A stretch of DNA of 63,290 nucleotides, the filler included, from Asterionella formosa (Eukaryota), in assembly GCA_002256025.1 (NCBI GenBank). It is 14 parts of 14 records of this genome, joined end to end, with 100 filler letters (N's around TTAATTAATTAA, not from the genome) between each part and the next. Parts side by side here need not be neighbours in the genome. Positions count along the whole stretch, not along the records: positions 4,545 to 8,987 come from NKIB01013521.1; positions 9,088 to 13,526 come from NKIB01013522.1; positions 13,627 to 18,064 come from NKIB01013523.1; positions 18,165 to 22,596 come from NKIB01013525.1; positions 22,697 to 27,126 come from NKIB01013526.1; positions 27,227 to 31,652 come from NKIB01013527.1; positions 31,753 to 36,178 come from NKIB01013528.1; positions 36,279 to 40,703 come from NKIB01013529.1; 6 more parts are not named here. One strand, given 5' to 3'. The translations under genes and the position numbers were made by a program. Of this stretch, positions 4,544 through 61,551 are shown in pieces. Every line of letters begins with the position of its first letter. Within the stretch, counting starts at the first letter, position 1. Below the pieces are notes generated by a model. That model was not told the DNA's origin. It saw only the letters and a list, made by a program, of their open reading frames with translations, and searched no databases.

Positions 4544-4826
4544 NGCTTCACAAAAATCCATGTACAGGTGATTGATGTAATATACCCGGTAGCAGGGAAC
4601 AACAGCCTGTTAGAGTCCAGAGTTCATTTGGTGGTGGGTTACCTTTATAAAGCATCATCTGGCCCATCATTTGATATTCAACGAGTGCATATGATGAGCA
4701 AGCGAGTTCACGCAAAATATTATCCTGTTTCCACTCCTACTAGAGGATCAGACTGCAGACCCAGACCAGCCATTTCTAGTCATCCATTCATCAATACTCC
4801 AGAATACCTGGTATGGTACCAGGGTA

Positions 4827-5691
4827 CCAGCAAAAAACTGCTGTGACCCACTAAAAAAAAATTGGAACCGCTGTGACCCACTGAACAGGAGAAAAACACG
4901 GTTTGACCCCACCAAATGCCAATATGTTAATTTTAAAACTTCGACCCAAATCCTGACCATCTACGCTTTAAGGATATGCCATTAGATTTAAGTTTATAGC
5001 AATTTGTTTCAACTAAAATATTGGTTGAAAAGTGCAATCGACGAAAATATTGCCAGAACACGGATTACCCCATGTTTTAAGGATTCATTGTTTTGTGATA
5101 TAGGCAACTAAATACAAAAATATCGCATGCGATTTATTTTGCCGATGATTCTTGTCATTAACATATCCCTATCCCCTGACATTGATTAAGTAATTTCAGC
5201 ATGAATAAACGGGCGCGCCAAGGTCAACCCACATACCATCAGCCCCCGTACAACAATGCGAAGAAAGTGTGCACCGAAACCGGTACCAGGTACATACCGG
5301 TATGTGTTGACGGCTGAATGCATTTGTGTGTGATTGTGATGTACCGGGATGTACCGGTATCCTGGTACAGCAGGTACTCGGATAAATCTGGATACGAAAA
5401 TTCTTCTTAAAAATAATTTTTCGAAAACCAAACGGGGTAATCCGTGATCGTAATGGTATATAAAATTATATTCAACTATAGATAGAAATTTAAGTACGGC
5501 TGTGACCCATTACCGGCAAATTTTGTCCACATAAAAGGGTTCGTATCTCAGTACCTCGACAGATCCACAACTTGCTGACTCCTTTGGTTAACAAGACATG
5601 CAAGTTTGATTCTCGCAAGACATGGAATAGGTTTAGTCGAACTAATCAAACGAATAGGAGAACTCAGTGGGTCACAGCAGTTCTTTACTGG
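4827..5691. mobile_element. MITE of Tc1/mariner/pogo type with 26-bp TIRs and TA target duplication
   Basis: TA|CCAGCAAAAAACTGCTGTGACCCACT (4827-4852) and AGTGGGTCACAGCAGTTCTTTACTGG|TA (5666-5691) form a 24/26 inverted match. GCTGTGACCCA is repeated internally and there is no coding capacity. Confidence 0.85.
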
Positions 5692-5940
5692 TACTTTTCT
5701 TTATGTATGGAGCCAAGCTACCAGGTACCGGCACTTGTACCCTGCCTGGTACCAGTAGTTTCTTCGTCTATGGAAGGGTTTACAGGCATAGGTACCTGGT
5801 GGCATGGTAGTCTACCGGCACCTGGTCCGGAGTAGAATACCGGTATACAACTCCATTTACCGGTAACCATGAAACGAAGAATATAGAACAATATACCTAC
5901 CTTTACACTACTGGTAAGCAAATTAGGTAAAATACACCGC

Positions 5941-7769
5941 CAAGTAAAAAACTGCATTGACCCGCAGGGAAAATTTTCGAACTGCATCATTTTCTATTTC
6001 TTAGTATGCTCCAGAATGTATCTTGAGCATACTGTATACCGGATGGAGTCATACTGTTAGTTCTCAGCCGATTGGACGTCGATCTTTCGTTTTAATTTAG
6101 GTCAAAAGTGGCGATCGAAAAAAAGGTGAAAAGCACAGATTATCCCAAGTTTGGAGTTCTCATCTTGTATTGTGTACAATTATGCATATAAATCTCTCGC
6201 ATTTTATGTCTTTTCCATAACCTTGTCCATAATGATTCTATTAAAAAAATTAATGAAACCCGGGTCGGCCGTGTAATACCGGTATCTGGTATGTATGTAC
6301 CGTAGTCAGACCATCATAAGTACTGGTACCTGGTACCTGGTACCTACCCATGGGGACAAAACTGGTACATCTATGATAGTATCAGGAATGGTACCTGGTA
6401 CTGGTATGTACGGGTTTAATGTATGGAGCATCATCCATTTTATGTCTTTTCGCTTTGAACCAAACAGGATAATCCGTATTGACCAACAAATATAAAATTA
6501 CTTTCAGGTTTGTTAAAAATTTCATTCAGGTTTGTTAAAAATTTCATATACTCCATTGACCCAGTGAGACTGAATTTTACGTCTATGTTGATGAATATAA
6601 ATATCTTTTGAACCAGATGTTCAATTTTTAACTATGGCTGGATGCATGATGAAACTACATTGGGTAGCCATCGTAGCTACCCGTACAAAATAATTCTGGC
6701 TACCAGTACAACATAATTTTAGCTTAAGTAAAATGTTCAATATAAATTGCATACATATGAATAAAGTTTATGTACACATGCATCCGCGATCTCGTTGTTG
6801 TCGTTGTTGCATTCATTCATGACAAACATGAAATCGAAGTCCATTGCGCAGCGATGGCTGTGAAATCGTTGTTGTATCTTCATTGCAACTTCTACATGAT
6901 CTTATTTTTAAGACATTCCTGTACAGTTTCAACTCCAGCTTGCCCACTATCAAGCTCAAGAGTGTGAAACCATTGGTCATGTAGGCGTGGATCTCCGTGC
7001 CCAACAAAAAATAGTTCATATAAAAAGCAAAATGTGTCGTCCCGTGCCGCTTCCGGTGTGTAATAGTAACGCTACTCATAGCTTTAGTCGTTGCTGTAAC
7101 AAATCGATAGTTCTATTTGCAATCCTATAAATTGACGCATGTTCTTCTCAATTGTAGATTCGTAATTTCTTATGCAATTTTAAGATATCTCTATATTTCC
7201 TTTTCTATTGCATCTTTCATACAATGATATCTTAGAACTCAAAGGCGCAGCGACTCCTTTGCCATTTTGATGGAGAAATAGCTGATTATCAACATGGTCA
7301 ATGTGTTGACGACAACATGTTGACGAGTCTCTCAATACCTGGTACCAGGGTGCTAGTAGCATGTACACACAGGCTCCGTAAGATGATATGATATTTGTTA
7401 TTATATTCCGGTCATTTTTATTTAGGCTACGCATATGCATATTAGCTACTGCTCACATATATCTAGATGTTCGTAGCTGGCCTGTCACCGTTGACAATCC
7501 TTGTTACTCCATGATACACTGTGAACAAATTAGTGATACAGTGTCAAGTTTGGAATGAATGAAATTCAGTTCAAATCGAGTTACCATTGCTGATACATTT
7601 TCAAAAAATTTCAAATTCCGTGATACACGAAAAAAATGATAAGAACGGCCCTTATAATATGACATCAATACTTCCGAACAAATTTCAGAGAGGCAGATGC
7701 AAGCTAAGTGCTAGTCGAATTAGTCAAACTAATAGGATAAAACAGTGGGTCAATGCAGTTTTTTACAGG
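5941..7769. mobile_element. Second MITE of the same family, carrying a nested repeat
   Basis: Perfect 20-bp inverted repeat GTAAAAAACTGCATTGACCC (5944-5963) / GGGTCAATGCAGTTTTTTAC (7747-7766). The right end ACAGG|TA and its subterminal sequence resemble the 4827-5691 element. Confidence 0.75.
7075..7651. mobile_element. Dispersed repeat family A, right end of a PIF/Harbinger-like non-autonomous element
   Basis: About 580 bp shared with 55955-56585. It ends ATGATAAGAACGGCCC|TTA, and the same terminus recurs at 14064-14082. GGG-starting TIR plus TTA/TAA target fits PIF/Harbinger. Confidence 0.65.
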
Positions 7770-7780
7770 TACCCTGGTAC

Positions 7781-8711
7781 CTGGAAGGTGCAGTAGCACA
7801 CATTTATATGCACCTTTTCAGTTTCGATGCACTCCGAATGGATCATTTCATGCCTGCCAACCAAGATAGGCCAGCTTTCGATGAAAATAATATCACTTAC
7901 TCTTATTGACTGATGACGATTTGCTGAATGATGAACGGGTTCAAGAAACTGTAGTTCTTGTGCGTAGCTAGAGAATCCTGCATGATGCTGTCTCCGCCTT
8001 GACCATGTCGAAATTAACAAATTTCTCTATGGAAAATGAAAACGATGCTATGCTGTCTGGTAAATATATCTAACACAACAAAAATAATATATTCGTTAAA
8101 AAAATGTAATAACACTAATATTGACAACGAAAATTGAAATCGCCGATTGGCACATTGCTTCATGTACTAGCTTAGGTGATACAAAATTCAAAATGGCGAA
8201 GTTACAAACAGATTTGACACTTATACAGTATGCAGCACGCTACACTACGGTGTTTGATTCTCTATTTAAGTTATGTTGATTAATAGTCCATTGACATTTT
8301 CAAAATGGCGCTTTTGTTTATGATTGCTGATATGACTACTAGAAATCTGCTGACAATGATTAGAATTTGCTGACATTGATCAGAATTTGCTGACTATATC
8401 TAGAAACTGCTGAGTATGACTTGAAAGTCCTGACTACTAGAAGTAACTGTTTTTTGATTGGTGAATGCCATTAGCAAACCGTCATCCAGTTGTTGAATAC
8501 CATTACCAGTCGTAGTAGTAGGTGAACTCGATTTCGATGATCAGAACACGACTTGGATTTAATGAATTATAATTTAAGCATTGAAGAAAGTTACTTCAGA
8601 GAGTTTGGAATGAAAAGCCAGACTATCTTGTCCTGCAGGCAGGAGACGATCCATTGGGAATGCGTCGAAACTGAAAAGGTGCGCATAAACGTGCGTCACC
8701 GGACCTTCCTG
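7781..8711. mobile_element. MITE with ~90-bp imperfect TIRs (CAGGAAGGTCCGG-type end, possibly hAT-related)
   Basis: 7781-7869 is the reverse complement of about 8622-8711 (shared core GCACCTTTTCAGTTTCGA..AATGGATC..TGCCTGC..CAAGATAG). Internal ~20-bp GCTGAC repeats lie at 8320-8440. No TSD found. Confidence 0.75.
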
Positions 8712-9087
8712 GCAGACAAAATTCGTCGTCCATTCTTTCGTTCGCCGCTTTCTTTGGCGGACACCCCCATAAATAAACACCGGTACCTCTGGCCGGGTAC
8801 CTGGTACCTGGTAGGACAACCTGGTACCAGGGGCACCAGGTACTAAGCGATAGTATAATGCTGGTTGGTCCTCGTTCCTACCAAGGGTATGGTACCAGGG
8901 TACTATTCAGGGCGTGTAATAGCTGTCGTACCAGCTATCTTCTCACAAAACGAAATCAAAACAATGGCATATTACGGCGGCGATTCCNNNNNNNNNNNNN
9001 NNNNNNNNNNNNNNNNNNNNNNNNNNNNNNNTTAATTAATTAANNNNNNNNNNNNNNNNNNNNNNNNNNNNNNNNNNNNNNNNNNNN

Positions 9088-12000
9088 AAGTGAAAGTTTA
9101 AGTTGACGACTTCTTCGTTACTATTAATTTCATCAACTGTATTCGATTGACACAGTACAAGGTTCAAGGCCTGCGATACGGTCGATTACGGTAGTTGAAA
9201 CAACATTGTTTCGAAATAAAAATAAATAAAATAAAAACATTAAAACAAAAGGAGCCAGCCGTTTTGAGACTCACATGGAAGGCTGGAGTTTCGACATCTC
9301 AATCGCGGAATTTACATTCTATAGATTCGAGTAGCGCAGCTTAAGGCCACAGCCACCAATCAAGGAACCAACAGCGACAATTTGAAGAGATTTGACCAAC
9401 AAACCCCATGAGCACCACCCCAGACGCAACGATCAGCGGCAGCACCAGTGGGCGAGGGCGAAGGGACAACCGTCTGCACGGGAGCCGTGGTGGGCGGGCA
9501 AGGACACAAGCGACAAGCAACAACCGTGGCATTTTCAAGGGCAGCGCGGAGGGCATGAACGGAAACGTATTTGAATGCTATTAAGAACAAAGTGACAGAC
9601 GCCAGTACGCCAAAACGTTAGAAGTTCTAGATGGATATGTGAGGAAAACACTGAAGTACTCTGAAGACCTTGCCCCTTTGTTTGCCGACACCATGGCGGT
9701 TCCCATGGTAGACATGCCAGATGACCTAGATGATGATGCAGGACTGACCATGAAAATGATTTTCGCAGAAGAAGTAAAAACGTATGTCAAGCGCAATCAT
9801 ACCCTGAAGAGCAACCTAGCAACAGTGTATGCGGTGATTTGGGGCCAGTGTAGTGATGACATGAAGGCAAAGGTCAAAACGCACGATGACTACAAGGACA
9901 AGACTGCCAACAACGATTGTTTTTGGCTTCTAAAACAGATCAAGTCGATTACTTTACAGTTCGATCAGAGCAGGAACGGTTTCATTGCACTTTTGGACGC
10001 TCAGACCAGTTTCCTCACTTATCGTCAGTTACAAGCAGGACAGTCTGCAGAAGACTACGTTGAGTGTTTGCGAGGATGGGCTGAGACCATTGATGACCAT
10101 GGCGGCACCGTGGCAGCAAATTATAAACTGGTACCCTTCCAGGATCAGGACGGGAATGGGCATAGCATTGAAGAGCGAAAGGAGATTGCGTGTGAACACA
10201 CCCTTGCAATCGCTTTGATTCGAAGAACTGACCCCACCAGGTATGGCACCCTCATTGCTGACCTGTCAAACCAGTATGCTATGGGAATTGACCAGTACCC
10301 CACCGATTTGTTGTCAGCCCAAAGCCTTCTCGTCAACTACAGAACTCCAACGAACACCAACGTCAGGAGAGATACACCACGCTCCCAGCCGACTGGAAGC
10401 CCTGAGGCCAGCGAAATGACGTTTGCGCAACATGGCGAAATCGCAGGCAATAATGGAGTGTTACATGATGGCATCATCTGTTACAACTGCCAAAGCCTAG
10501 GACACTACGCGGGAGACTGCCCTGACAGGCAGGGATCGACGACCTCAGGCACTACATTGACGCAGTATGCATACATGCTTGCACAGACCGGCGACCCTGG
10601 GATTGATCCTAAGTGGATCCTTCTCGACTCGCAGTCGACAATCTCCGTGTTCAAGAACGCCGACATGCTCAGCAACATCCGGCGTAGCTCTTACGTACTC
10701 AGGGCGCTCACAAATGGGGGCTACCAGGACTCCAACATGGTAGGAGATTTTCCCAACTTGGGTAAGGTTTGGTACAACCGTGAATCAATTGCCAACATCC
10801 TCTCCCTTGCTGAGGTGCGCAAGGTATGCCGCATCACCATGGACTCTGCGGACGAGCCCGCGATGCTTGTCCATAGACTCGATGGAACTGTGATGAAATT
10901 TCTTGAGCACCCCTCAGGACTATAAGTGTTTAGTTGTAACAACGATACTAACGACAGTGTTACAGGTTATATTATGCTATCCACAGTAGCAGAACAGAAG
11001 AAACTATTCTCACGACGTGAAATTCGATCAGCCAATGCAGCCAGAGATTTGTATAGAAAGATCGGGCGGCCTGCCGAGGCGGAATTCCAATCCATCCTAC
11101 GGAACAACTTGATTAGAAATTTCCCAGTGACGCCAGACGACGCCAAGCGCGCCCTCATTATTTACGGTCCAGACATCGCTGTCATAAAAGGTAAAACTAC
11201 GCGGTCGCGCGCCGCCCCAAGAGCGCCAACGTTTGTGGTCGAACCGATTCCTGCCCCAATCCTGGAGCATCACCACAACGTAACTTTGTGCGCCGATTTC
11301 TTCTTTGTTCAGGGTCTACCATTTTTTCATACCATCTCACGCGGTATCGGTTTCCGAACCGTGGACCTGGTTCCCGACCGGACCAAGACTACCATTCTAC
11401 GCAAAATTCGGAGTGCGGTCCGCCTCTACCACCTACGCGGTTTACAGGTTTGTGATGTGCATGCTGACAGTGAACTCGAGTGTGTTCGTGAGGACTTGCA
11501 ACCTATCGCATTAAACATTGTACCTGCCGACAGTCACGTTGGTGAGGTGGAACGGTCCATCCGAACCATCAAGGAGCGACTACGCTCCTGTGCACACGGC
11601 CTACCTTTCAAGCGTCTTCCACGGGTGATTATCAACCATATGGTGATCGATGCCGTTCGATGTCTAAACCAGTTCCCATGGGCAAACGGCATCTCAGACA
11701 CCATGAGCCCCGCATGCATTGTCACGGGCGCTGCCAACCCAGAATACAACCAAATGCGCATTGAGTTTGGGACCTACGTCCAAGTTTTTGAAGACAACGA
11801 CCCATCCAACACCCTTCAAGCGCGTTCCCTCGGAGCAATTGCCCTTACCCCCACTGGCAATGCCCAAGGTGACTACTACTTCATGTCTCTTGCAACCGGC
11901 ACTAAGATTTCCCGACATAATTGGACGGAGTTGCCCATGACGGACACCGCCATTGCCCGCGTGGAGGCGCTCGCAGCACACGAGGGGCAGCCCCCCATCC

Positions 12001-13526
12001 AGGCCAGAGGCCTAGTTGTAGAATGGCGCACCGATCACCACATTGACAACGACGAATACGACCGGGACTACGAGCCTGCCGCACATCAACCTATTGACGA
12101 TTTTAACCCCGCGGATTTTGATGCCATCGATGATCACGAAGTTGCCGATCTGCTCCATGATGGGCCACACCCTACGGTTTTGGACGATGCACCGCTAGTC
12201 GAGCCAAATCCAGTCGACCCGGACCCAGGAGACCCAAACACGATCGAAGTTGATGACGTCGCGCTTGTCTACGATGACTACATACAAATGAACACAACAA
12301 CGAAAACCAAGGAGCGCACTTGGAACAAGGAGCGCCTATGGAAGAGACAGCGACCATTGAAGAAGCCAATCAAGAAGCGGGTTCTGACAACGACTACGAG
12401 GTGGCAGATCAAGGAGCGTTGGCAGGAGAACACAGACCACATAATCCCCGACAGCGCCGGGTAGCCACAAGTGAACAGTTCAAGCAGGCCATTGATGCAC
12501 CACATAGCAACAAGTCATACTTTCCACCAAGACAGTTCGTACAACGCGGATTTCGAACAACGATGCCATACGCAGACAACAACACAAGTAAACATATTTT
12601 TGGGTATGTAATGATCCAGATGACCGCGAAGGCGGGAATAAAGAAACACGGGAAAGCGGCGGAGGCCGCCCTGATGAAAGAATTTGCACAACTAGAGGAG
12701 CTGGATGTGTACGAACCCGTAAGCGCGAACTCCCTTACCAGGGAACAGAGGACGGGAGCGCTCCGAGCCATCAATCTCATCAAAGAGAAGAGAGACAGGC
12801 GCCTCAAGGGGCGTACAGTAGCCGACGGGAGACCGCAGTGATCACTTTATGACAAGTCGCAGACGGCATCTCCAACAGTATCCACCGATGCACTCATGTT
12901 GTCCATCATGATTGATGCACATGAAGGAAGAGATGTCGCCACAGCAGATGTGGCGGGCGCGTATTTGAAAGCAGATATGGATGATTTCATTGTTATGAAA
13001 TTCACTGGTGAATCAGTCGATATACTATGCAACATGAATCCAGAGCACACGAATTTTGTGTCCAACGAGAAAGGAAACAAAGTGTTGTACGTCAGGCTAG
13101 TGAAAGCGATTTATGGGTGCATCGAATCTGCCCTACTATGGTATGATTTATTCCGCAACACCCTAAAAGAGATGGGTTTTGTGTTAAACCCTTACGACTC
13201 TTGCATTGCTAACTGCACAATCAACGGGAAGCAGTGCACGATTGCGTGGTATGTAGATGACAACAAGATTTCGCATGTGGACCTGGACGTCATGACATCA
13301 ATTATCGAAAAAATCGAGGAGCGTTTTGACAAAATGACTGTCACCAGAGGAACAGAGCACATTTTCCTGGGTATGCACATACAATACACAGGCAAGGGCC
13401 CAGCTGTCATTACTATGAAGGAATATCTTAAGGAAGCATTGAGCAAGTCAGGGATGGAAATCACACGGGAAGTGGCCACGCCAGCCCAGAAGTGTCTATT
13501 TGAAGTGGATGAGGAGTCTCCTTTTT
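9088..13526 (+). mobile_element. Ty1/Copia (CoDi-like) LTR retrotransposon with a disrupted gag-pol, truncated by the contig end
   Basis: ATG at 9408. Zinc knuckle CYNCQSLGHYAGDC, protease WILLDSQST, integrase ADFFFV..HADSE..HVGEVERSIR, RT ADVAGAYL..YVDD, in PR-INT-RT order. In-frame stops at 9582, 10923 and 12839, and a frameshift near 12300. Confidence 0.95.
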
Positions 13527-16650: not shown

Positions 16651-16688
16651 ATCAATGGTGGCTGTGTGACGAGAGCTGTGGTATTTGT

Positions 16689-21809: not shown

Positions 21810-22696
21810 ACATATTCTGTTGTACCCCTCTACTTAGTAAAAAGACTTGGCCACATCTTATCGGCTGTAGCTCGTTGTTGATATCATAGTTGTGAAGATA
21901 CACTCCTATATACCGGTATCTGGTAGTCTACAAACATCCTACATCCGTACATGGGAACTTGCGGTTACGGACCAGGTACCACCCCTTAGGAGTTCACCAC
22001 CGTAAATGTAAAGTATCACATACGTATCATGACCATCACACATGCTACCTGGTAAGTACGGAGTACCGGTACCAGGTACCAGGGTACAGTACTAATAACT
22101 GTGCAGGAGTCGTACGTGTAGACTGGCAATGACAAGCTTTTACCCCAGTTTTTGTCTACTTTTTAATATCAGTAGTAGCCGGTCCTGTGCCGTATTTAGT
22201 GTCAGTATTGCTGGTTGGACCAAAAAAAAGGTTCAAAGCAAGAAACTAATAAACTCCCTCCATAGTGTTAGTGTATATGCCATTCGTCTAATGGTACACA
22301 TGGAACAAGCAAGTTGCAGAGAATCTATAAAACTCCCCGCCGACAGTTGCTATCATAGATGTCGACGTATCGGATTCCTGAAGACGGAAATCGCTCAATC
22401 AAGAAACCGTCGACAATGGCCACACCCTTAGACTGCTATTTATAGCTTGCTTGCCTTTCTACTCCGACTTCACTGTGAGCGGCGTACTGTCCTCTCCAAG
22501 GACAAGCCAGTTGTCGTCGCTACTGCTCCACATCAGACCGTTGCATGTTTGCACTCCGCAAATCTTTACCTAAAGACATTTGCCAGTCCAGACTACNNNN
22601 NNNNNNNNNNNNNNNNNNNNNNNNNNNNNNNNNNNNNNNNTTAATTAATTAANNNNNNNNNNNNNNNNNNNNNNNNNNNNNNNNNNNNNNNNNNNN

Positions 22697-23912: not shown

Positions 23913-23997
23913 TGAGACAATAGAAATGGGGAACATTGACTGTTTAACTGCACAAAATCTAGAAACATAAAAATGATTTTGTGATATAACAATAAAA

Positions 23998-24271: not shown

Positions 24272-25055
24272 CCTTGGTAGAATTCCTGCTACCGGTATCT
24301 GCTAATCTAAGTTTTGCTAAATTCATGACCGCAAGCAATTTGGAGAGTCTCAGACCAGGAGCCTACGAACAGACTTCCGAGCAGCTTCTATGCCTGCCTT
24401 GCGGCATGGTTTTCTGCATTTTCAACGGTAACCAGTTACTTCTTCGTCTGTGAGGTTCTGCCTTCGAACGTGGTGTCACTGTCAAAGTCAACGTTTACTT
24501 GGTACCAGGTACCATGTACTGTACTCAGAGTACATAGCGGGTCTCGCAGCTTGTATCAACACAGTATAGCTGTGCTGTACATATGAAGGAAGGCAGATCC
24601 GGTTGACTGAACGAAGAAGGATTCCGGTGCACTCTCGCAAACACATTGCATCCACGTGCATTTCCAGTACCTTGTCCCTTGTTGCTTTGAATGATTCCTA
24701 CTTGTGTGGCTGGCTGGCGTACCATTTTGATTATTTTACTGATATTGTGTACATACATTAGTACCCCTGGTACCAGGTACCTGGTACCAGTAGATGTCCA
24801 ACGATACTTACAGTTCGTAGCGTAGTACATAGTGTCATTGAGGAGTGAGGCAACGAGAAGGCCATAAAATAGTCATGGAGGACTAAATTCGGTAATGCAC
24901 AGTATTTGGTACTTTGTTTTTTTCGTGAATTGTGCGATCAATCGAAACGTCAAGGACCACTCTTCGTTACCGGTACAAAAACCTTTATTTTACAGTGTGA
25001 AGCAGGCAGAGGGAGGAGACGAGATGGTAACGAGAGTGACGAATGAGAACAGAGA

Positions 25056-29114: not shown

Positions 29115-30262
29115 TGTCGATTTGATGTTGCTAGTACATGTACTTCTTGTAGAGACCCATGCAGTTGCTTGCTGTTGGGCACAAGCGCGCCGTGCCCGAA
29201 CCCCGTAGCGAGGGAAACAATCACTAATATACGTTGTATATATATCCCTCGGCTAATTGACGTTAACTTGGCACCTGCTATACAAATGCTACGTAATGCA
29301 GAAGTCGAACATGATAATCATATTCTTTTCATTCGTATGTATATCATACGCGTTGCAACGACGCACTCGGAATTGCAGGTACCTGGTACCTGGTATGTAC
29401 CGGTATTGTTCGTGTCACTGGTGTCGTGATTTGTGTGATTTTTATTGCGCTGTATGTTATATACCGGTACCCTTGTACCTGGTACCAGGTACCGGTATAC
29501 AGTCCTATGTATACAGTGACTGTTGCCAGAAAAAGTATGGAGTACCTGGTACCAGGTAAAGTTACAACATGGAGTATCATCTCACATGGAAACAAGGAAG
29601 GTCAGCAAATTCCGCTATTTGTCCATATTGCGGCCTGTCAGTTTCAGGTCGTTATGATTGTTTAAATATAAATTTTCAAATGAAGCCTTCATCCATCATC
29701 CAGAAAGTAATGCCTTGCTTTGACTTCATTTGTACCCACCAGTACCTCCTGAAAGCCATCTTTCCATTCCCTTGCTGCCTGAGCATGTAGCCAGTTCCAT
29801 CATTACTTGGGGTTGTATCAGATGTTATCACAGAAAGTCCTTCACCATTTTTCATTTGCATACCCTCTACCAGGTGTTCACCAGACAATTTGTATGCTAC
29901 ATTTACCATAGTGAATAAGGAATTACCAGTCCAAGCATGATCTTCTTGCAGAGCATCAGCAGATACAATATTTTCTACCAAAAAAACCAACCCAACTCTA
30001 AACTAACATAGAGAGACTTTTTGGCCATCAACATAGAGTGAACATAAAACCAGATTCATGTGAACAATCTAGGATTAGTGTGCTCTAGCTACCACTTCGC
30101 ACACATCATCACTTGTGAGCATTCCCTGAAAGCATGTTGTTGATACAAACAACCAAATACCACCAAGGAACATCCGACATGAGTAATGAAATTCTATGGG
30201 TATTTCAGTGGCACAGGATTTTTTGGTTCTTTGCTTCACAGCTGCACTAGCATGTGAACGGC

Positions 30263-36426: not shown

Positions 36427-37077
36427 TCTGCTGCAGTGCCAAGTGACAGTCTAGGTATGACCTATGCAGACAAGTTCAGATTTGCTGCAATTCGAATCCG
36501 GATGATGATTATATCAGTACCGGTATGATGCTGATGATGATCATACATGTTAAATCATGGTGTCAACAGATGAAATGATGGACATCCTTCTACGGGTCGT
36601 TCGTTGTACCTGGTACCAGGTACTACAAATCGTAGGATCCAGAACCACAAACACTACGTATGTCATACGTTTTGTACATGCACATGAGCTTATATTCGGC
36701 ATGTCGTAAATCATAAAACGTATATTAACTTCACTTCTATAGCGCCTTTAAACTGCTCTATTTGTGATTGTACTGGTAGTGCAACCTGGCTACAGTACTG
36801 GATGACATATCAGTCTTTGTCTTTAGGTCTGACTACCTGGTACTTTTGTGACCTCCTTTTTTCTTGTTTATGCATCTAAACAATCATTCTCTAGTACTCT
36901 AATCACTCTTTTCAACAAAACCCCCTTCCAATCTCCTCTAGAGCTTGTCAGGTCAGCTATTGCTCCTCAGTCCAACACTCTCTCAACTCCTCAATTGTTC
37001 ATCGTCTTCTTTCATCCCTCTCATCCTTATCCTTCACAACAGGTTGTGACCCCAAATCATTTCTCTTACTACCATTC

Positions 37078-40803: not shown

Positions 40804-42071
40804 TTGTGAAGGCGTTGTATGGTATTGAAATTTGGGTAAGTTGGAAGGAACTGTCGTTGATCAATCTGTCCTTTTTGTTTGGTTTTATTAAGATACCTTG
40901 AGGGGTGTAGTTGATATTTGTGATGAACAAACCCAGCATACGTTCGACTGTGAAAATGTTCTCACGTGCGTCTTCTTTGTTCATGGCTTTGGCGACCAGG
41001 GTTGGGTTAGAGTCAATGGTTTTGTGGTTGCCATAGGTGCGATATTCCTTGACTTGTTGGGCTGAGAAATGAGCATTGATTTTGGCTGGGCATCCAAATG
41101 TAAGAATGCGGGCTATGTGTTGGTATGTGGCTTCATCAACTATTCCCTTCAGTCGGGGTAAGATGATAGTTGGGCTGCGATAGGGGAGTCCAAGAAGGGT
41201 TCCTCCAACATAGCGAATACATGCAGCAATGTCACCACTAAAGTGAAGAAGGAGTGCTGACCTCATTTTGGTGCGATGATGTGGAATGGCTTGTTGGGTG
41301 GCCCAGTTTGTGTCACGGGTTTGGAGTGGGCTAAAATCCACTGTGGATAATTCGACAATTTTTCGGCAGAGGTGTTTGACTCTGGGGTCCATGGACCAGA
41401 GGGCTTCGTAGTCATCATTTTTCAGGTAAGTGCACCTGTTCATGATCACAATCAAGAGGGTCGAGTAAATTGTTGGCGTTGTTGTAACTGAAACATTTTT
41501 TTGTATTCTTACCAAAGGGTTGTGAGACAGCAAGTTGTGCTGCTGATGGGATACTTGATCTTGTAAGATAGGCTGCTTTTATGCTTGCATTGACTTGGCT
41601 CCCTGTGAAGGGAGTTGAGGTTGTTCGATGTGTTGGTTTCTGGGGTCCTGTGGAATCCGGCTTGAATGATATTTTTCGTATGTGGCTAGTTTGCACATGG
41701 TCCACAGTGAACGAGTTATTATTGCGTTGTGAGGGGTTGTAGAATTTGAGGAGCCTTGTTTTGGTGTTGTGGCATATTATTAGTGAGTTCTACAAATAAG
41801 ATCATGGTGTGTTGTATGTGTAACTGTTTTTCTAGTTTACTCACATCTGCTGGATCCAATCCATGATTTTCTTTTTTGTGTCTCCCACCCAAGTGATGGT
41901 GGAGTCATTGTCAACCCAACTGACGAATTTTTTGGCTTCGGCTATGGTGCCGATTTCAGATGGTTTGGTGGGGTGACGGTATCGGCAGTTTGGTCGACGG
42001 CATACTTGGTGCTCAGTAATCATATGGAGAATGTTCCTTGTTGTATGAATGATATATTGATAGTACCTCAT
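40804..42071 (-). mobile_element. DIRS/Ngaro-like (tyrosine-recombinase class) retrotransposon fragment: gag-like Cys/His finger remnant and N-terminal RT region
   Basis: ORF 41533-40804 with RILTFGCP, YGNH, MNKED and TPQGILIKPNKKDRLINDSS, typical of the RT start in this group. Upstream CRRPNCRYRH. Cut by the contig edge. Confidence 0.6.
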
Positions 42072-42730
42072 TCTATACTATGAGCTGATGAATTGAGACG
42101 TTCAACATGGTGTGTTGCTTGAATATTGATGATGTTATAGGTGAATCAGTACTGGGAAACCATCATTTCCAAATTAAGCTGTTTTGTTATGAAATGACAT
42201 AGTGACATCATCTGGAGAATGTTCCTTGTTGTATGAATGAAATATTGATAGTACCTCATTCTATACCATGAGCCAGTGAATTGAGATGTTCAACATGGTG
42301 TGTTGCTTGAATATTGATGAAGTTATATGGGAATCAGTATTGGGAAACCATCATTTCCAAATTGTGTGGTTTTGTTATGAAATGACATAGTGACATCATC
42401 TGGAGAATGTTCCTTGTTATATGAATGAAATATTGATGGTAACTCATTCTATATTATGATCTTATGAATTGAGACGTTCAACATGGTGTGTTGCTTGAAT
42501 ATTGATGAAATTATAGGGGAATCAGTATTGGGAAACCATTATTGCCAAATGGTGTGGTTTTGTAATGAAATGATATAGTGACTCATCTGCAGAACGGTAC
42601 ATATTGAATGATTGATATATTAATATCACCTTCTTCACTCTTTACTTTACTCCAGTGAATTGGGAGTTGCAACATGATGCGTTGGTTGAATATTGATGGA
42701 GTTATGGTTGAATATTGATGGAGTTATCAA
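42024..42730. repeat. Tandem repeat with a ~187-bp unit, 3 good copies and 1 degenerate
   Basis: TGGAGAATGTTCCTTGTT starts at about 42025, 42213 and 42401, with a degenerate copy at about 42588. Confidence 0.9.
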
Positions 42731-42893
42731 ACCTTCATATCCTGACTTTTTAACATTAAAAAATGGTAGTAAGCAAGCTAGCTAGCTTTATACCTTATGC
42801 ACAGTGCCATTACAATGTCTTTCCATAACACGGCAATATGAATGACTGATATGGCTGGTCTGATGATTACTAGTGAATTAACAATGATAGTTT

Positions 42894-44723
42894 CTATGTC
42901 AATTTCAATTGACTTGTCGATTCTTGCATGTTTAAATATATGGCATTCTCATTGAGGGAAGCAAGATGTTTTTCAAAACTGTCCAAGTTGGCTGACCAAG
43001 GATCCTGCCCACATGTTGCAAATGCAGCTGCAATCCATCTCCTGGGCTTATTTCCTAGGTTTATTTCATCAAAGGCAGTCTCAATCATTCCAACCAGATC
43101 TTCCCTTGGGACTGTGAGAGCACAACCAACCAGCTCTCTGGCAGTTTTATCAGCTATGGCTTTCTGCCTGAAATCATAAAATAGCTTCTTGATTGCAGCC
43201 TTGAGAGGTTTATTCAAAGCAATATCACACACCTGATGAATTGATGTCATGCCTTCTAAGATGTAAACAAGGAAGACTTTACCTGGTCCAGGTGATGAAT
43301 GATTTGTCTCCAGCCAATCTGTGATAATTTTTCCAAAATGAGTTTTGGATCGATCTACAATAAGCAAAGACCTTTGACATGGAAACATTTTCAATAGCCA
43401 GTCAAGATATATAATAAAAGCATATTGAGTCATCCAATGTGATTTGTTGAAAATAACTGTTGACTTTGTGTAGTTGCTCCAAGAGGTCATCAGATCTGCT
43501 CCAAATGATCCAGTATCAATGATGAATGGTGGTAGAAGTTGTGAAGAAAGAAGACTAGCTGTGACTGCCAGTGTGACTCCCTTTTTGTCATTTTCAACTG
43601 GAACCAAGGACCCTACTCGTTTTGTTCCTTTTGGCACAAGGACCTTGTCCTTACCAGGGTAGAAAAGAATGAAAGTCTCATCCATGTTGAAAACATTATC
43701 CACTTGGAGATCAATGGCAGTTTTGCAAATAAGTAGTGACTGTCTCCGGGCAATATCAGCCCATTTAACAGGAACCTTTTGTGAAATTGTATTTACACGC
43801 TCAGAAAACTGAGACCTTGAAATAACTCTTCTAGTCCATGTACGAAGACTGCCAGGATCTTTTAATAACTTATGAAAATCTTCAGAGTAGTTCTGTCGAC
43901 CAAACCGATGTCGCAGTGAAACAATTACTTCTTCAAATGAAGCAGCATCGCCACGCTCAAATCTGGACAAGATCATGTTGGTGACATGAATCTGCTGGAC
44001 AAGATATTTTATTGGAGGTCCAAGGGTGGATCCCTTTGTAGCATGTGGAATGCGGCAATTAGCGGATCCAATATATAATGTATTGTTGTTTTTCTTTGCT
44101 CGTGATGCTGCCAATTGGGGAGAAATATTTAAATTTCGGAATACAAGTTGCTTCTGGCCTCCACTTCTTTCCAGTTGTTGCACTATTAACAAATACTTTT
44201 TCAAATGTTTTGATTTGATCAAATCTTGTCTCCTGGTTTTACTATGCATGACAAACAAATATTGCTTTCTCAATGGAACAATTTTCATTATACCTTCTGG
44301 GGTTGCGGACTTGGCAATTGAAATCCATTTGTAAATGTTCTCCTTTCGTAACCAGCTCCTCAGAGTTTCTGGTCTTACCATGGACCCAAAAACTTCATCA
44401 AACATCTTGAAAGAGAGGTTCCCTAAATCTTGATGTAGATAAAAAGAGATCATCAGTGACCGACAGACCCATGTCATTTCCTTTTTCCCAGTAGGAGATA
44501 CAGTTGCAGTGCCAAGAACAATAGAAACACTTGAAAACTGAAACTCAATCTTTTCAATAAGATCATCAAGAATTTTCTCAATAATTGCACTTTTGACACA
44601 TCTATTTGCATGATTATTCAATTCAATTTTATGATGCAAGTGGTCCAAACGGGCAGCATTATGTGCAGCAGCAGCTTCAGTATTGACATTGAGCATGGTA
44701 CGCCATTGTAAAATAGTTGCCAT
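42894..44723 (-). CDS. pogo/Tigger-type DDD transposase (DDE_1 family)
   Basis: 609-aa open frame with NVFNMDETF, LLIVDRSKTH and TSIHQVCDIALNKPLK, plus a CENP-B-like HTH region upstream. The frame stays stop-free for about 85 more codons upstream of the ATG. Confidence 0.9.
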   Translation of the reverse strand: MATILQWRTMLNVNTEAAAAHNAARLDHLHHKIELNNHANRCVKSAIIEKILDDLIEKIEFQFSSVSIVLGTATVSPTGKKEMTWVCRSLMISFYLHQDLGNLSFKMFDEVFGSMVRPETLRSWLRKENIYKWISIAKSATPEGIMKIVPLRKQYLFVMHSKTRRQDLIKSKHLKKYLLIVQQLERSGGQKQLVFRNLNISPQLAASRAKKNNNTLYIGSANCRIPHATKGSTLGPPIKYLVQQIHVTNMILSRFERGDAASFEEVIVSLRHRFGRQNYSEDFHKLLKDPGSLRTWTRRVISRSQFSERVNTISQKVPVKWADIARRQSLLICKTAIDLQVDNVFNMDETFILFYPGKDKVLVPKGTKRVGSLVPVENDKKGVTLAVTASLLSSQLLPPFIIDTGSFGADLMTSWSNYTKSTVIFNKSHWMTQYAFIIYLDWLLKMFPCQRSLLIVDRSKTHFGKIITDWLETNHSSPGPGKVFLVYILEGMTSIHQVCDIALNKPLKAAIKKLFYDFRQKAIADKTARELVGCALTVPREDLVGMIETAFDEINLGNKPRRWIAAAFATCGQDPWSANLDSFEKHLASLNENAIYLNMQESTSQLKLT

Positions 44724-46094
44724 GCTTTTCTCATGTTCCCCCCTCTTTATTGCAGATGATGGCTGGGGAACAAGTTTCTGCTCTGGCTCTGGAGATAAAT
44801 TTGCTTTGAAAGTTTGTATCTTATTTGCAATTCCCTTCCTTTTTGCAGATTGTGAAACAGGCTTGGTAAACCAATTGAGTATTGATGGTTGTTTTGAATT
44901 TTTTTGGCCAGAAGGTTTTTTGATTCCAGGATGTTGTTCATTCCTTCGACATTTGTAATTTGTTGAGTAAGGATGGAGTCATGATTTGCTGTAATAGAAT
45001 GCTGATAGACTCCACTCTGACCTTTCAGAAGAATCCCTGTGGTGGGCATCAAGTAGCAAAAATGATTAGCTAAATGTGGCTGGCTTGATGGGATTGGAGA
45101 CATGGGAAATCCGAAGCGATGGTGGTAGACATACACAGCTGGAGAGTCACTTGGTAGATGGAAGCAGGTATGGCTACTCAAGAAACTAGAAGAATTGAAT
45201 TCCTCTATTGACTTGCTGCTATTANNNNNNNNNNNNNNNNNNNNNNNNNNNNNNNNNNNNNNNNNNNNTTAATTAATTAANNNNNNNNNNNNNNNNNNNN
45301 NNNNNNNNNNNNNNNNNNNNNNNNCACCCCAATGCAACATCATCACTCCACTCAGCCCTTAACACTATTCCACCATATGTGATCTTACCTTACTCTTCAG
45401 CCCTAAATTTCATCCTGGCAATTGATTGCCAGGATCCACAATTCAAACTCAAATTCACCGAAATAGCAATACAGTTTGCTACATACTTCCTGCGTCTCTC
45501 AAGACCCTTCTCTTGCTCTCACCTTATGTCTTCATCAGGCTACCACTTTCATTGATTTGTCAACATTTTCGACTCTCCTTCAAATATTTCATTCTTCCAA
45601 AATGGCCATGTAGTTTAAATATGTCGTTCTACTTCTTGATTTGCCTTTTTCTCTGCCCTCGGTTCCTCCCTATACTGGGTGGTCTATACACACTCTAAGA
45701 GCCATATGTGGTCTCCTTGACCTTGCTTGCCATCTCTACGATTGTTTCCTACTCTGCAACCCCTAAGAGTCCCTCAATGGACTCACCCTCACTCGTTATT
45801 CCTTTGGGGCCCATTTGGGCCCTAGTGCAACTCCACGAACTCCATTAAATTCGAGTTTCAATAAAAGCGTACTTTAAAATTTTCTTATTCTATATATTTA
45901 GTGAATTCTAAAAGGAATCTATGTACGTATGCGCAAAATTCCACTGATTTGAATATTTCAAATGGAATCATGTCATTCAAAAATAGCTCATATAAATTCT
46001 TAGTTCCACGGAATTTTGGTAACCCTAAGCAATATTTCATTTTTTGCCTTAGGGACATGCAGCAACCTTGTGCATAAATAAAATATTTATGTAG

Positions 46095-46108
46095 TACTCC
46101 CTCTGTCC
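46095..46108. mobile_element. Stowaway/mariner-type TIR start (TA|CTCCCTCTGTCC)
   Basis: Consensus match, with the same motif inverted at 24258-24271. Confidence 0.55.
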
Positions 46109-46876
46109 AATAACAGTTGCATCGATAATTCTAAAGAGTGCTCCATTTCAAAGACGACTTACCATTGCACCTCCATGAATTGTATCAACCCACACGAGGC
46201 AAAGGTACTTGAAAGTAACATGAAAAAGAATCGCATGTTGATGGACTTCTGATTTACCTTTTCGATATAAATGCAAGTTAGACTTGATCGATTCACCATC
46301 CCAGACATTAATGAAAAACCCAAAACCAGAACCCGGGAAATTATCAAGTCCCCAAGGAAGGCACTTGTCAACATTATTGATTACCAGTTCTGCATGCTGG
46401 TAGTCAAAATTCAACAAAATATCTTTGTTGGTGAAACACCTTCAATCTGGAGCATGGTGCCATCGTCCATAATATGCTTCACAGTTTTCCTGTCTGCGGT
46501 ACTTTTTCGAAGAAACCAGCGGAGATCACTAATGTAGAGATTTTTGAATGTTGACCAAATGCCTTTGACAAATTTTCTAGCAGAGTTGAGATTATCGGAT
46601 TTGCGAGGATTAATAGGAAGTGCCTGCCATCCCACCTTCTTTCCAACCCTCTTTTTAATCACCAGGGGAAACGAATTGATTTTCTTCACCCTTTCCAACA
46701 TGATGAAAATTAATTTATCCAGGCAAGCCAGTAGTACCTGGTTGTATGCCTACTGGTAGTGCTGCTCCGGAAGTATGGTGCTGCCATTGACAGGTCAGAA
46801 GGGAGATAGTGCTAGTACTGTTGCTTGGTAATATACTAGCATTGTTCCTAGTAGCTACTAGGAATACACAAACGAC

Positions 46877-47804
46877 CAGGAAAGTCCGGTAATCAGTGCA
46901 TTGCGCGCACTTTAAACTAAAATTTTCACCTAGCAGTTTCAACCTACTTCATTGGTAGTAGTCTGGTGGCTGACCGTCTCACAAATTCCAAAATGATAAA
47001 ATATTTCAAAACGGTTACATGTATTTATATTACCTGGAACCCTTTACAAAGTTTCAAACTGAAAAGCGCTGCCACCTTTCACAGCAGAATCGCTGTCTAC
47101 CAGCTTCAACTTGCTTGCTGACTGTGGACTTCATTTTGCTAACTGCTGACTTGATTTGCTGAAAATTTGAAATATTTACTGACTGCTGACTTCATTTGCT
47201 GACTAATTACTGACATGAAATCACTGACTGCTATCTTCAACTTGCAGACTTCAAGCAACCTACCAAGTAGGAAGAAGCCAACTTTATTAATCATGATATT
47301 TGAATAACGATGGAAAAGCATCTTTTTGTTGTGAGATACTGAAGCAATGCCTACTACATAGTATCAGGAGTAACACAGAGTTAATAAAAGCTTTTAAATA
47401 GTCATCATTGACTGAAAATAGTCATTGCTATCTACTTCTTCATTTTGCAACCAGACCTACCAGTATGCCCTATCTTTAAAATGCTGACTTAGACTTGCTA
47501 AATACTGATTGCGGACTTTGTTTTGCTGACTGCTGACTTGATTTGCTGACTATACTGACATGAAATCCCTGACTGTTAACTTCAACATACTGACTGCTGA
47601 CATTAAGTTCATTTTGATGATAAAACAACTAATGGCTTCACTTTTATGTAACCAATGATTTAAAGAAAAACGGAGTGGTGCAAAATTTACGGGTTCGACA
47701 ATTTTTGGGGGATGTACCCCTGCCTTTTTTCGCATCTGAATCAATGACCAGAAATCGAGTAACCTTCGCGCTATGTGCGCTGATTACTGGTACCGAACCT
47801 TCGA
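46877..47804. mobile_element. TIR element family C, inverted copy of 16689-17630
   Basis: Begins CAGGAAAGTCCGGTAATCAG. It is collinear in reverse with the contig-4 copy and has GCTGACT arrays. Confidence 0.85.
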
Positions 47805-47920
47805 GGATAACGGTTGGTACTGACTCCAGGGTACTCGGTACCTTGTACCCTGGTACTTGGTACACTGTAATTCTAAACTACTGGTACCTGTTAACATACA
47901 GATCGAAGTTACAACTTACT

Positions 47921-47941
47921 TAGGGTTTTATGGAAACCCTA
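47921..47941. promoter_or_regulatory. Paired inverted telo-box-like motifs upstream of RPS20
   Basis: TAGGGTTT (47921-47928) and AAACCCTA (47934-47941) lie just before a pyrimidine-rich putative transcript start. Confidence 0.45.
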
Positions 47942-48281
47942 CTTCAGAAAACTATGCTGCCGCCAACTCTCTCACTTCTCACTTTGCTCCAGGTTCGTGA
48001 ACGCCATGGCGTTTTCTTGTTAATGAAATGTTTGTTGACACCAGGAGTTATGCAATTTACAATGGGAAACGATTTAAGGCGTTACCCTGACAAATTTGGT
48101 TGAATCGTGAAATGAGAAGACTTTGAAACTACATTTCCATCGGTGGTCAGGAGACCGTCTAGTAGTAGTTAGTACCTCTTTTTTCTTTCCCGATTTCAAG
48201 TTGATAGCCATTGCTCACTTTTTGACGTGCTCTCCTCAATTCGACAGTCGGAAGTATTTCGAACAACCTTCTTGCTTCAAT

Positions 48282-55954: not shown

Positions 55955-56585
55955 TCATAGCTTTAGTCGTTGCTGTAACAAATCAATAGTTCTATTTGTG
56001 GTCCTTTAAATTGACGAATGTTCTTCTACATTCTAGATTCATAATTTCTTTTGCAATTTTAAAGATGTATCTATATTTCCTTTTCTATTGTATTGTTCAT
56101 ATAATGATATCTTAGACCGCAAAAGGCGCAGCGATTCCTTTGCAATTTTGATGGAGAAATAGCCGATTATCAACATGGTCAATGTGTTGACGACAACATG
56201 TTGACGAGTCTCTCAATACCTGGTACCTGTTACCAGGTACCAGGGTACTAGTAGCATGTACACACAGGCTCTGTAAGATGATATGTAGAATGTACACACA
56301 GGCTCTGTAAGATGATATGATATTTGGTTTTTTATTCCGGTTATTTTTATTTAGGCTATGATCATGCATATTAGCTACTGCTCAGATATATCTAGATGTT
56401 CGTAGCTGGCCTGTCACTGTTAAAAATCCTTGTTACTCCATGATACACTATGATACAAATTAATGATACAGTGTCAACAAGTTTGGAATGAATGAAATTC
56501 AGTTCAAATCGAGTTACTGTTGCTGATACATTTTCAAAAAATTTCAAATTCCGTGATACATGAAAAGAAATGATAAGAACGGCCT
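55955..56585. mobile_element. Repeat family A, second copy
   Basis: Collinear with 7075-7651 and ends AAGAACGGCCT|TTA. Confidence 0.75.
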
Positions 56586-58753: not shown

Positions 58754-58875
58754 GATACAGAAATCAAGTCACAATNNNNNNNNNNNNNNNNNNNNNNNNN
58801 NNNNNNNNNNNNNNNNNNNTTAATTAATTAANNNNNNNNNNNNNNNNNNNNNNNNNNNNNNNNNNNNNNNNNNNN

Positions 58876-59157: not shown

Positions 59158-59267
59158 TGTGAAACAAATGTATCGGAAGAGGGAATCAGAGTTAGGTTCT
59201 GTTCAGTTGTGCTACATATAATTAATGATCGGACGGTAACATAAACAATGATTGGCATGTAATCATT

Positions 59268-59552
59268 TTTCATTCGCATGTTCTGATTTCTCGGGTGGTA
59301 CCTGGTACTAATACCAGGTCAGACATCTACATGTAGAAAGTGGTATGACATCTTTGTTCATTCGCATTTCCGATTTCTCGAGTACCGCTACCAGGTCAGA
59401 CAAAAACATTAGCAAAAGTGGTATGACATCCCGAAGCATAAAAAATTACGTATCTTAGATCATGAATCTATGTAGAGCCCAAGATACAAAAGTGGTATGA
59501 CATCCCGCAGCACACAAAATTACGAATCTTACACTATGAATCCATGTAGAGC
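59268..59552. repeat. Local imperfect tandem duplications
   Basis: AAAGTGGTATGACATC occurs three times and CATTCGCAT..GATTTCTCG..TACCAGGTCAGACA twice. Confidence 0.75.
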
Positions 59553-60299
59553 CGAATCTTATAGGGCGGACACATTTACGTAAATAATATATGTTTTCGA
59601 GTACCGGTGAAAGAAGTACCGGTATTGAAAATCTGAGGTGCTTGATGGTACCCTTGTACCAGTACTACTTCGTAGATGTGTAAACATGCATGCGCCTCTT
59701 CATCATCCGTAAGTCAATCCAATGTCCAATGTACATAGCCTACCAAAAAAAGAACAAAGATTTCACGACCACAGCCTTCAATGTTCCGTTGTTCGAAGGG
59801 AACATATGAATAAAATGCACTTCTGTTTTGGTACCACCATCCTACTAAGAGACAGGTAACTTGTATGCCGGGATCCCTTAGGTACACTGATAAGAATGGT
59901 GAGTAAATTCATGAACTAACCGAAAGATAATACTACACTCTATAAATATTAGCTAAAGAAATATCTAAATGCTGCGTTGCCGGCATTTGCATTTTGGAAA
60001 TGAGAACACACACAAATTTATTCGAATCATCATCATGACGAAAAATTATGTCATGCTAAATAAAAATCCAAAAGGTAGATACCGTAGTCCACTCCTCACT
60101 TCTAAACAAATGACAATAATCAACATACATACCGGTAGGTATTCAGCATCACCAAGATGCGAAAAGAGATCCGATATGTTCTTGATCGCCATAAATTCGT
60201 CTCAAGATTGCTTGGAAGGAGCTGTAATTTTTGGAAGATTGTGGCTATGACTCCAAAAATTCTAATGTAGTTCAGGCTTGGTTTGAAATTAAATTATTC

Positions 60300-61380
60300 A
60301 AGAAAAGAATGCAGGATCACTATTTCCTCTACTTTCAGAAGGTGAAGCATCAGATTAAGTCCAACTAATGAATAAATTATATATCTTTCAACATTTAAAT
60401 TTTTCAAGTAACTCTTTCCTTCTCCACTCTATATTAACAGGAAGGTCATTGCAAGCCTAAGGTTTGCAATCTGCTAAGAATCACATCTTGCATCACAGAG
60501 CTTCCAGGCAAAATACACAATGGTTCCACAGTCAGTAAAAAGTAGCCCACCAGCCATAATCCACCAGCTGTTACCACCAATCTCAAAATTTCTCATTGAA
60601 TCTTATTGGCAGGTTGCAGTCTCCATGGCCAATTCCTTCCTTGCCAAAGCTAATTTGCTCAAACATTGATGGCTCTAGGCTTTGCATGAGGCCTTTCTCA
60701 GAATGAATTGGGCCCCCAGTCAGCATGGCACTTCTACCCAATACTCCACACCTTTTGAGCTTATCTACGGGTTCAAGCCTAACCTTTGCTCCTTTTTTCT
60801 TTTGAGTGCATCAGATATTATTGTTGCCCTTGCCTTTGACAGCACCTGCAGTGCCCACACCAGTATTTGAAGTCAGAGGTTCTCTCCTGGCATCACATTA
60901 AGTTGGGCTGATGCTGACACTTTAACAGGCAGGAATGCTCCTTATTTTTTCTGTGTCAGTGGATTCTTACTCCATCTACGTGATACCATTGCTAGTCCTT
61001 TCCCTGACATCATATGTGATGTTGACTTTTATCTTTGGCTCTACACAGACTGTACAACCACTTCTGCTAAACCCTCTCACCCCAGTTGCACTGTGTTTGT
61101 CCATCTCACTCCTCAGGGAGATGTTTCTGAGGGCCTGGTTAGAGCACTCCTCACCTCTTCTTTTGATTGACCTCCAGTATGGTGTCTCTCTCACTGCCTC
61201 CTTTAACAAACTCGATTTTCCAGATGAGGTCATCATCCCAGACTTTGTACTCCATGTCTCTCTGGATGGTGATGATGGCAATCCCCTTGCCCTTCTCCTC
61301 CCTCCCTGGTTGAACTTTGGGTCACATTCACATTCACATCTCTTTCTCTCCTATAAGAAGTGGCTTGATGAAAAAAATTA
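60300..61380 (+). pseudogene. Degenerate Copia integrase-region remnant
   Basis: Residual STPFELIYGFKPNL motif in a broken, almost CpG-free stretch. Confidence 0.5.
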
Positions 61381-61551
61381 CCCGGTACCAGGTAGTAGTA
61401 ATAGTTAACGGTCCTATTCCATGCTGGGTAAAAAAATAAATTAACAAGAACTGTCCTCCCTATATAAGTATGCTTGTTTATTCACTCACTAGGTCACTGT
61501 CCTGCTGCTACTGCAAGCATCGAAATGGTGTCACATTTTGAGTATTTAACA

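Follow-up and report, generated by a model that had tools for sequence, protein, structure and literature searches.

In the stretch of Asterionella formosa DNA analysed here, non-coding sequence carries short units in which a core such as CCAGG, CCTGG or CCGG lies between two TA dinucleotides, and the question that this locus raises is what has written them there so often. The stretch, hereafter the window, comprises 63,290 nucleotides in 14 contigs of approximately 4.4 kb each, joined by N linkers (a junction such as 4445-4544 holds N44, a 12-base TTAA-type linker and N44, and represents an assembly spacer, not biology). Sequence comparisons across the window and the 68.4-Mb assembly (15,436 contigs) make it highly probable that the units are accumulated excision scars of two resident groups of cut-and-paste transposons that duplicate TA. 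An earlier note on this DNA had proposed such footprints and had named four outcomes that would speak against them: no enrichment over a Markov background, polymorphic units other than TA-duplicating insertions, no abundant CC-ended element family targeting TA, and absence of the motifs from independent libraries. None of these was obtained, and the footprint reading is supported.

TA-core-TA units are enriched in non-coding DNA

All five words listed in the earlier note were found in the window (TACCAGGTA, 15 copies; TACCTGGTA, 18; TACCGGTA, 25; TACTGGTA, 11; TACCAGTA, 8; 77 in total), and their presence on nearly every contig was borne out, with at least 1 unit on 12 of the 14; the contig at 1-4444 and the Copia contig at 9088-13526 contain no motif units. 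Their rarity in intact genes was likewise confirmed: TACCWGGTA occurs 33 times in 38.8 kb of non-coding window DNA, where an order-1 Markov model predicts 0.2 and an order-4 model 2.7 occurrences, and not once in the 23.1 kb of open reading frames (ORFs) of the window. In an unselected sample consisting of the window and ten 10-kb stretches, the 91.6 kb outside long ORFs hold 66 CCWGG, 59 CCGG and 43 CCAG/CTGG units (0.5, 0.5 and 2.7 expected, respectively), and the 70 kb of long ORFs hold 4, 3 and 0. Throughout the assembly, TACCWGGTA was counted 26,886 times (902 for the reversed control), TACCGGTA 28,528 times (1,718 for the reversed control) and TACCAGGGTA/TACCCTGGTA, the CCAGGG class, 3,393 times (control, 203). 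The three main classes together make up approximately 0.56% of the assembly, and 148 of the 2,738 non-coding TAs in the window (about 5%) adjoin a core; "saturation", as it had been called, is therefore an overstatement.

Near-identical lake-metagenome contig pieces from the runs X4, X5, X6 (perhaps the source sample) and X7, which represent four studies, cross the motifs on contig L068 with 0-2 differences. Since contig pieces from runs of four studies contain them, the motifs are not an assembly artefact; they are real, enriched and non-coding. When the contigs of the four runs were aligned along L068, a repeat-rich stretch, no scar was among the 12 indels listed out of 157.

Other TA-bounded words are enriched in the unselected non-coding sample as well, namely TACATA/TATGTA (158 versus 73) and TACATGTA (8 versus 2.7), and CA-ended elements, L081 among them, may have left these as older scars. 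At 34091, one TACCGGTA is located inside the upstream ORF of the region 32572-34214 and could be an in-frame two-codon scar.

Polymorphic units are insertions at TA

To follow the units as insertions and deletions among homologous copies, 199 loci of the assembly and the window were aligned all against all, and gaps with clean 12-nt flanks were clustered to 797 events. TA duplication was found in 26 of 51 indels of 6 bp, including 19 with CCGG and 5 with CCAG/CTGG cores, and in 11 of 19 indels of 7 bp, including 10 with CCWGG cores. Polymorphic units are thus TA-duplicating insertions, as had been predicted: 34 of the 70 indels of 6-7 bp convert TA into TA-core-TA with a CC-type core. Among the 19 CCGG insertions, 17 have a long allele that is less common than the short one, and 2 have CCGG within the 24-nt context. 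The haplotype-like pair L010/L011 shows 33 mismatches over 2,098 bp, and each of its 4 gaps is a TA-core-TA unit; 120 kb of aligned copies from six repeat families contain 16 unit insertions versus 2,350 distinct substitutions. The empty sites L013, L239, L153 and L171 hold a single TA, which identifies the TA as a target-site duplication. What defines a footprint, namely a duplicated target site around the terminal bases of a resident element that is absent from the ancestral allele, is what these comparisons revealed.

Slippage or unequal exchange could instead expand a GGTACC(A/T) microsatellite into which elements merely insert. Perfect tandem duplications account for 4 of the 10 polymorphic CCWGG units, and in a few cases CCAGG forms long homogeneous runs (L009), as slippage would have it; however, the other 6 CCWGG insertions and all 19 CCGG insertions (0/19 tandem) lack a tandem template. 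The chains argue in the same direction. Of the 380 chains in 322 kb of bulk DNA, 318 comprise one unit, and 40, 18, 3 and 1 comprise 2, 3, 4 and 5 units, respectively; among 89 pairs of neighbouring units, only 17 are identical, and 14 pairs of CCWGG units are direct and 15 inverted. The chains are thus mixed, not slipped, and orientation and identity of the pairs are as independent events predict. Furthermore, CCAGGG exceeds CCCAGG 20-fold in the assembly (3,393 versus 168; CCCAGG control, 152). Slippage as the origin of the units is therefore extremely unlikely, and it probably contributes only to the longest chains. A role in generating microsatellites, which the earlier note had envisaged, stands insofar as chains exist, but it is modest, with no more than 5 units per chain in the 322 kb.

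Two groups of elements carry ends that correspond to the cores

The excision reading calls for donors whose termini spell the cores, and abundant CC-ended families that target TA do exist, although they form two groups rather than the one suggested before: CCG-ended elements for CCGG, and CCAG-ended elements for CCWGG and CCAGGG.

The first group has CCAGT ends next to TA, with 213 exact ends of one variant and 131 matches to its transposase. Its intact representative, L126 (G000:C14068), is 3,532 bp long and has perfect 25-bp terminal inverted repeats (TIRs) and a 779-amino-acid ORF; the contig extends only a few bases beyond the element, which points to a young element whose multiple copies were collapsed. 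TA precedes 67 of 67 distinct ends of the CCAG family, and only one TA is present at the empty sites L013 (for L010), L239 (for L028) and L171; these elements therefore duplicate TA. A 4-bp GTAC duplication with CAGT ends was considered and rejected: the G is missing from 5 of the 67 flanks, T and A never vary, and the empty sites, with TA alone, are in keeping with this.

For the 779-amino-acid transposase of L126, no Pfam match and no PDB sequence match was found; 260 homologues are unannotated, and homologues are annotated in Fragilaria crotonensis. Among 68 sequences, D310 and D459 are invariant and D497 is conserved in at least 90%, with a spacing of 37 residues. A structural model (pLDDT, predicted local distance difference test, 85) gave Mos1 and Sleeping Beauty as the top 8 rows of a Foldseek search, with a best E of 4.9e-3 and no value <1e-3. 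Sequence profiles gave a single weak match of Pfam DDE_1 among 23 homologues (E 0.085) and a weak hhalign alignment to the DDE_1 ORF of L105 that is colinear across the three aspartates (E=0.2). CCAG-ended elements thus combine a predicted DDD/E triad in an RNase H-like fold with TIRs around a single transposase ORF of approximately 780-950 amino acids, and metagenome relatives keep CCA(G/C) ends. On this basis we call their transposase a putative DD37D, pogo-like member of the Tc1/mariner superfamily. On the marine metagenome contigs L244 and L245, CCWGG chains flank a CCAC-ended relative, whose end was also found in the A. formosa assembly (L073).

The second group has CCGTA ends next to TA (407 ends versus 27 for the control). 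The CCG-ended elements L100 and L105 have DDE_1 matches, TIRs and empty TA sites, with a 35-residue spacing (DD35D) in L105, and belong to pogo.

Scar classes share the target context of their probable donors

Target context differs between the two groups, as GG-TA precedes 59 of 77 distinct flanks of CCAG-family ends and 1 of 41 of CCG-family ends. The same difference separates the new insertions, with 11 of 20 half-sites of CCWGG and 0 of 38 of CCGG being GG (P=7e-7), and it recurs in the 322 kb of bulk DNA, where GG makes up 61% of half-sites for CCWGG, 60% for CCAGGG, 13% for CCGG and 23% for CCAG/CTGG. Each scar class can be tied to a donor family, since its core spells the ends of one family and its context shows the target preference of that same family. 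Many CCAG/CTGG units may be CpG-decayed CCGG, and their intermediate context (23%) would fit true scars mixed with such decay products.

The preference of the CCAG family is RG-TA-CY, with GG-TA-CC as the best site. It is intrinsic, since CCAG ends without an adjacent scar still follow GG (26 of 44, compared to 1,087 of 18,936 background half-sites). At the same time, scar ends account for 346 of 1,433 GG-TA half-sites, and a scar adjoins 33 of 77 CCAG ends (background, 2%). As CCAG ends and CCWGG scars both sit at GG-TA, CCAG-type scars recreate their own preferred target, and a self-reinforcing feedback via target preference appears likely from these counts; part of the adjacency of scars and ends could come from elements re-inserting locally, next to the site they had left. 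The earlier note had attributed chain growth to the additional TA left by each footprint. Recursion is likely, but it would stem less from the extra TA than from the CCAG preference for the GG-TA-CC that scars recreate.

A proposed route from element ends to scars

Tc1/mariner elements are excised by a staggered cut that leaves a short core between TAs, and the Sleeping Beauty footprint, TA-C(A/T)G-TA, is an example. For the A. formosa elements, the step from TA to TA-element-TA is observed in the comparison of empty and filled sites. On excision, a staggered cut would leave the first bases of each end as overhangs, and end joining would seal the core between the TAs. For CCG(T)-ended pogo elements, annealing of CG would yield CCGG, and sometimes CCG/CGG, at ordinary TAs. 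CCAG-ended elements, both those with the DD37D transposase and MITEs (miniature inverted-repeat transposable elements), most likely retain four bases: CC(A/T)GG would follow from a 3-base overlap whose central position is an A:A mismatch, CCAGGG/CCCTGG from a 2-base overlap, and CCAG/CTGG from a full one. Scars of either group would create GG-TA and TA-CC half-sites and, as the context statistics indicate, CCGG may seed and CCWGG extend mixed chains. Scars would then be kept in non-coding DNA, more densely upstream of genes, and purged from ORFs.

Four retained bases are suggested by the CCAGGG class, since slippage within CCAGG should yield CCCAGG and CCAGGG equally often; four bases would thereby take the place of the joining of CCA and GG that had been proposed. 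A four-base cut by the CCAG transposase is plausible on these counts and somewhat favoured. CCATGG, expected from blunt fill-in of 3-base ends, was counted 330 times versus 323 for the control TACCATGGTA, which contains GGTACC and is inflated, so these counts do not establish its absence.

Several observations weigh against excision as the source. No excision event was seen in this sequence analysis, and no orthologous site was found that is filled in one allele and scarred in another. Copy L062 has a 786-bp CCAG element at the position of the scar hotspot at 6392-6406, but L062 and the window are 84%-identical paralogues and not one orthologous site; the combination of L100 (filled) and L165 (scar) as a three-state locus was rejected, because these are different sub-repeats. 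The indel sample is biased to the repeats that were searched for, and it includes the CCWGG insertions that are tandem (4 of 10) or have a commoner long allele (2 of 10). TA-flanked indels are common in general (24 of 97 indels of at least 11 bp), which is why only a specific, fixed core is diagnostic. Moreover, 34 TA-duplicating insertions with C/G cores and 16 with GC cores segregate (e.g., window 7443-7448), TAGCTA occurs 46 times versus 17 expected, and no G-ended donor for these cores was found in the 744 kb scanned. CCATGG was present in 2 polymorphisms and 3 element flanks, and the CCAC-ended relatives also lie within CCWGG chains, which a strict 4-base overlap would not yield.

Part of this would suit a host repair or nuclease activity (template switching, hairpin opening, or abortive cutting of the target by transposase) that writes CC..GG cores at TA without full insertion and excision: scars exceed element ends approximately hundredfold, the C/G and GC cores have no donor found, and no filled-to-scar pair was seen. 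Yet the cores correspond to element termini and not to copies of the flanks, each core class has the target context of the matching family, and the reaction would still need the terminal bases of the element. We consider such an activity very unlikely as the source.

Units are denser upstream of genes

The palindromes could also be transcription factor sites selected in promoters, as proposed for TACATGTA/TACCGGTA in Phytophthora. Within 1 kb of 60 long ORFs (genes being crudely predicted), unit density is 3.6 per kb upstream (133 in 36.7 kb) versus 1.6 per kb downstream (33 in 20.9 kb; P=5e-6), and the available text of PMC3597505 and PMC3520976 gives such palindromes as promoter motifs. On the other hand, transposon interiors, where selection is unlikely, have gained units one by one as 6-7-bp insertions (16 in 120 kb), and according to the part of PMC9976928 available, the pogo element Passer has a 5'-gene insertion bias, which by analogy the upstream density would fit. 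Selected binding sites are thus a highly improbable origin for the scars, although the units may later have been co-opted for regulation.

Elements and probable scars in the window

The locus from which the question arose contains the MITE at 4827-5691, whose reported ends, CCAG and CTGG next to TA, were borne out (TA on both sides; 213 exact TIR ends in the assembly). Most tracts that had been quoted as chains read as described, but 39075-39310 and 47785-47890 consist of single and degenerate units. L171 is a homologous haplotype-like contig.

4718-4719: plain TA; L171 has TA-CCGG-TA here
4817-4826: TA-CCAGGG-TA scar adjoining the MITE; L171 has one TA, without scar or MITE
4827-5691, plus strand: 865-bp non-autonomous element (MITE) with CCAG(C/T)AAARAACTGC TIRs; TA at 4825-4826 and 5692-5693
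5284-5292: TA-CCAGG-TA within the MITE; the extra CCAGG+TA is missing from 12 of 12 other aligned copies
5940-7769, plus strand: older degenerate element of the same TIR family as the MITE, with nested repeats; its right end is followed by TA-CCCTGG-TA-CCTGG (7770-7784)
6298-6304: TA-CCG-TA unit, not in L171
6321-6342: three-unit chain; one CCTGG unit fewer in L171
6392-6406: scar hotspot, hypervariable among 11 aligned copies, 10 of which differ; window and L171 agree
8798-8813: two-unit CCTGG chain
22064-22086: mixed chain of CCGG, CCAGG and CCAGGG
24771-24792: mixed chain of CCAGG, CCTGG and CCAG
29380-29558: three chains (29380-29395, 29476-29497, 29543-29558) between two divergently placed ORFs
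36607-36622: inverted pair of CCTGG and CCAGG
39075-39310: single and degenerate units, clustered
42894-44978, minus strand: 694-amino-acid pogo-type (DDE_1) transposase ORF
47785-47890: single and degenerate units, clustered
56231-56247: chain of CCAGG and CCAGGG

No TIRs for the transposase at 42894-44978 were found in its contig. Further repeats include Copia-type retrotransposon ORFs with a few frame breaks and no motif units (9585-13526) and retroelement-like ORFs at 32572-34214 and 40804-41578, with an aspartyl protease match at 32572-33834. A 1.2-kb MITE with GGTTG ends is abundant (L068:1053-2283, about 22 copies), its filled and empty sites fitting a TTAA duplication, and Harbinger-like ends (GGGCC after TTA or TAA) are common in the sampled loci. 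Strong CpG depletion at 41000-48000 and 60000-63290 (5-24 CG per kb versus 40-70 in genes) is consistent with methylated repeat DNA. The window also contains a PsbO gene. This gene, the freshwater sequencing runs in which the DNA is present and the F. crotonensis homologues of the transposase suggest a freshwater diatom.

Comparison with known systems

According to the available parts of the respective papers, the staggered cut of mariner-type elements inside the TIR, repaired by non-homologous end joining, and the resulting footprints are textbook knowledge (PMC4561436), the plant mariners Osmar5 and Ppmar2 retain 1-4 bases (PMC9632168), and excisions in rice are heterogeneous, with 8 of 94 being perfect (PMC4423477). 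Both Tc1/mariner footprints (Sleeping Beauty, Stowaway/Osmar5/Ppmar2) and the diatom scars keep the duplicated TA with a few terminal bases in between. However, the former are results from single loci or assays, whereas in the diatom, one or two stereotyped products reach approximately 59,000 genomic copies and half of the sampled 6-7-bp indels.

Among the closest known systems is Passer, for which the available text of PMC9976928 describes a DD35D pogo-superfamily element with TA target-site duplication, short TIRs, footprints of 0-4 bp, a palindromic G-TA-C target (AAGTACTT) and a 5'-gene bias. TA duplication, short TIRs, small footprints, a G-TA-C-type target and the 5'-gene bias are shared with the CCAG family, which differs in its D310-D459-D497 triad (37 residues), a length of approximately 780-950 amino acids, the lack of a significant Pfam match and a preference for GG-TA-CC; footprint-driven retargeting is not among the features that this part of the paper reports for Passer.

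In Phytophthora, TACATGTA/TACCGGTA (M93/M94; motif-1) are described in the available text of PMC3597505 and PMC3520976 as very abundant upstream of genes. These are the same TA-core-TA palindromes upstream of genes in a stramenopile, read there as binding sites and here, in the diatom, as scars; as far as that text goes, PMC3520976 raised an origin from Tc1 footprints and dismissed it on abundance and conservation. A literature search, which mostly covered papers outside subscription, returned no account of genome-wide footprint accumulation, scar-driven retargeting or this motif in diatoms.

Significance

Footprints are usually seen as rare, messy events at single loci, but here they are among the most over-represented words of the genome and form a countable record of past transposition that greatly exceeds what survives of the elements. 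Scar context agrees with donor preference, which ties each class to a family without experiment, and the analysis adds a transposase that is intact and unannotated and has an unusual preference for GG-TA-CC. It also makes the dismissed footprint reading of TACATGTA testable and calls for caution, as motif discovery in promoters of diatoms and oomycetes can return scars. If this holds generally, top-ranking "promoter motifs" in stramenopiles, for instance TACATGTA/TACCGGTA of Phytophthora, would be fossil scars, and the commonest TA-core-TA word of a genome would reveal which ends its transposons, active or extinct, have and how they are cut. For A. formosa, with the balance tipping slightly in favour, excision would be a leading sequence-stereotyped mutator producing small indels, and an undescribed DD37D family would build its own landing pads in a loop that concentrates insertions in harmless upstream hotspots.

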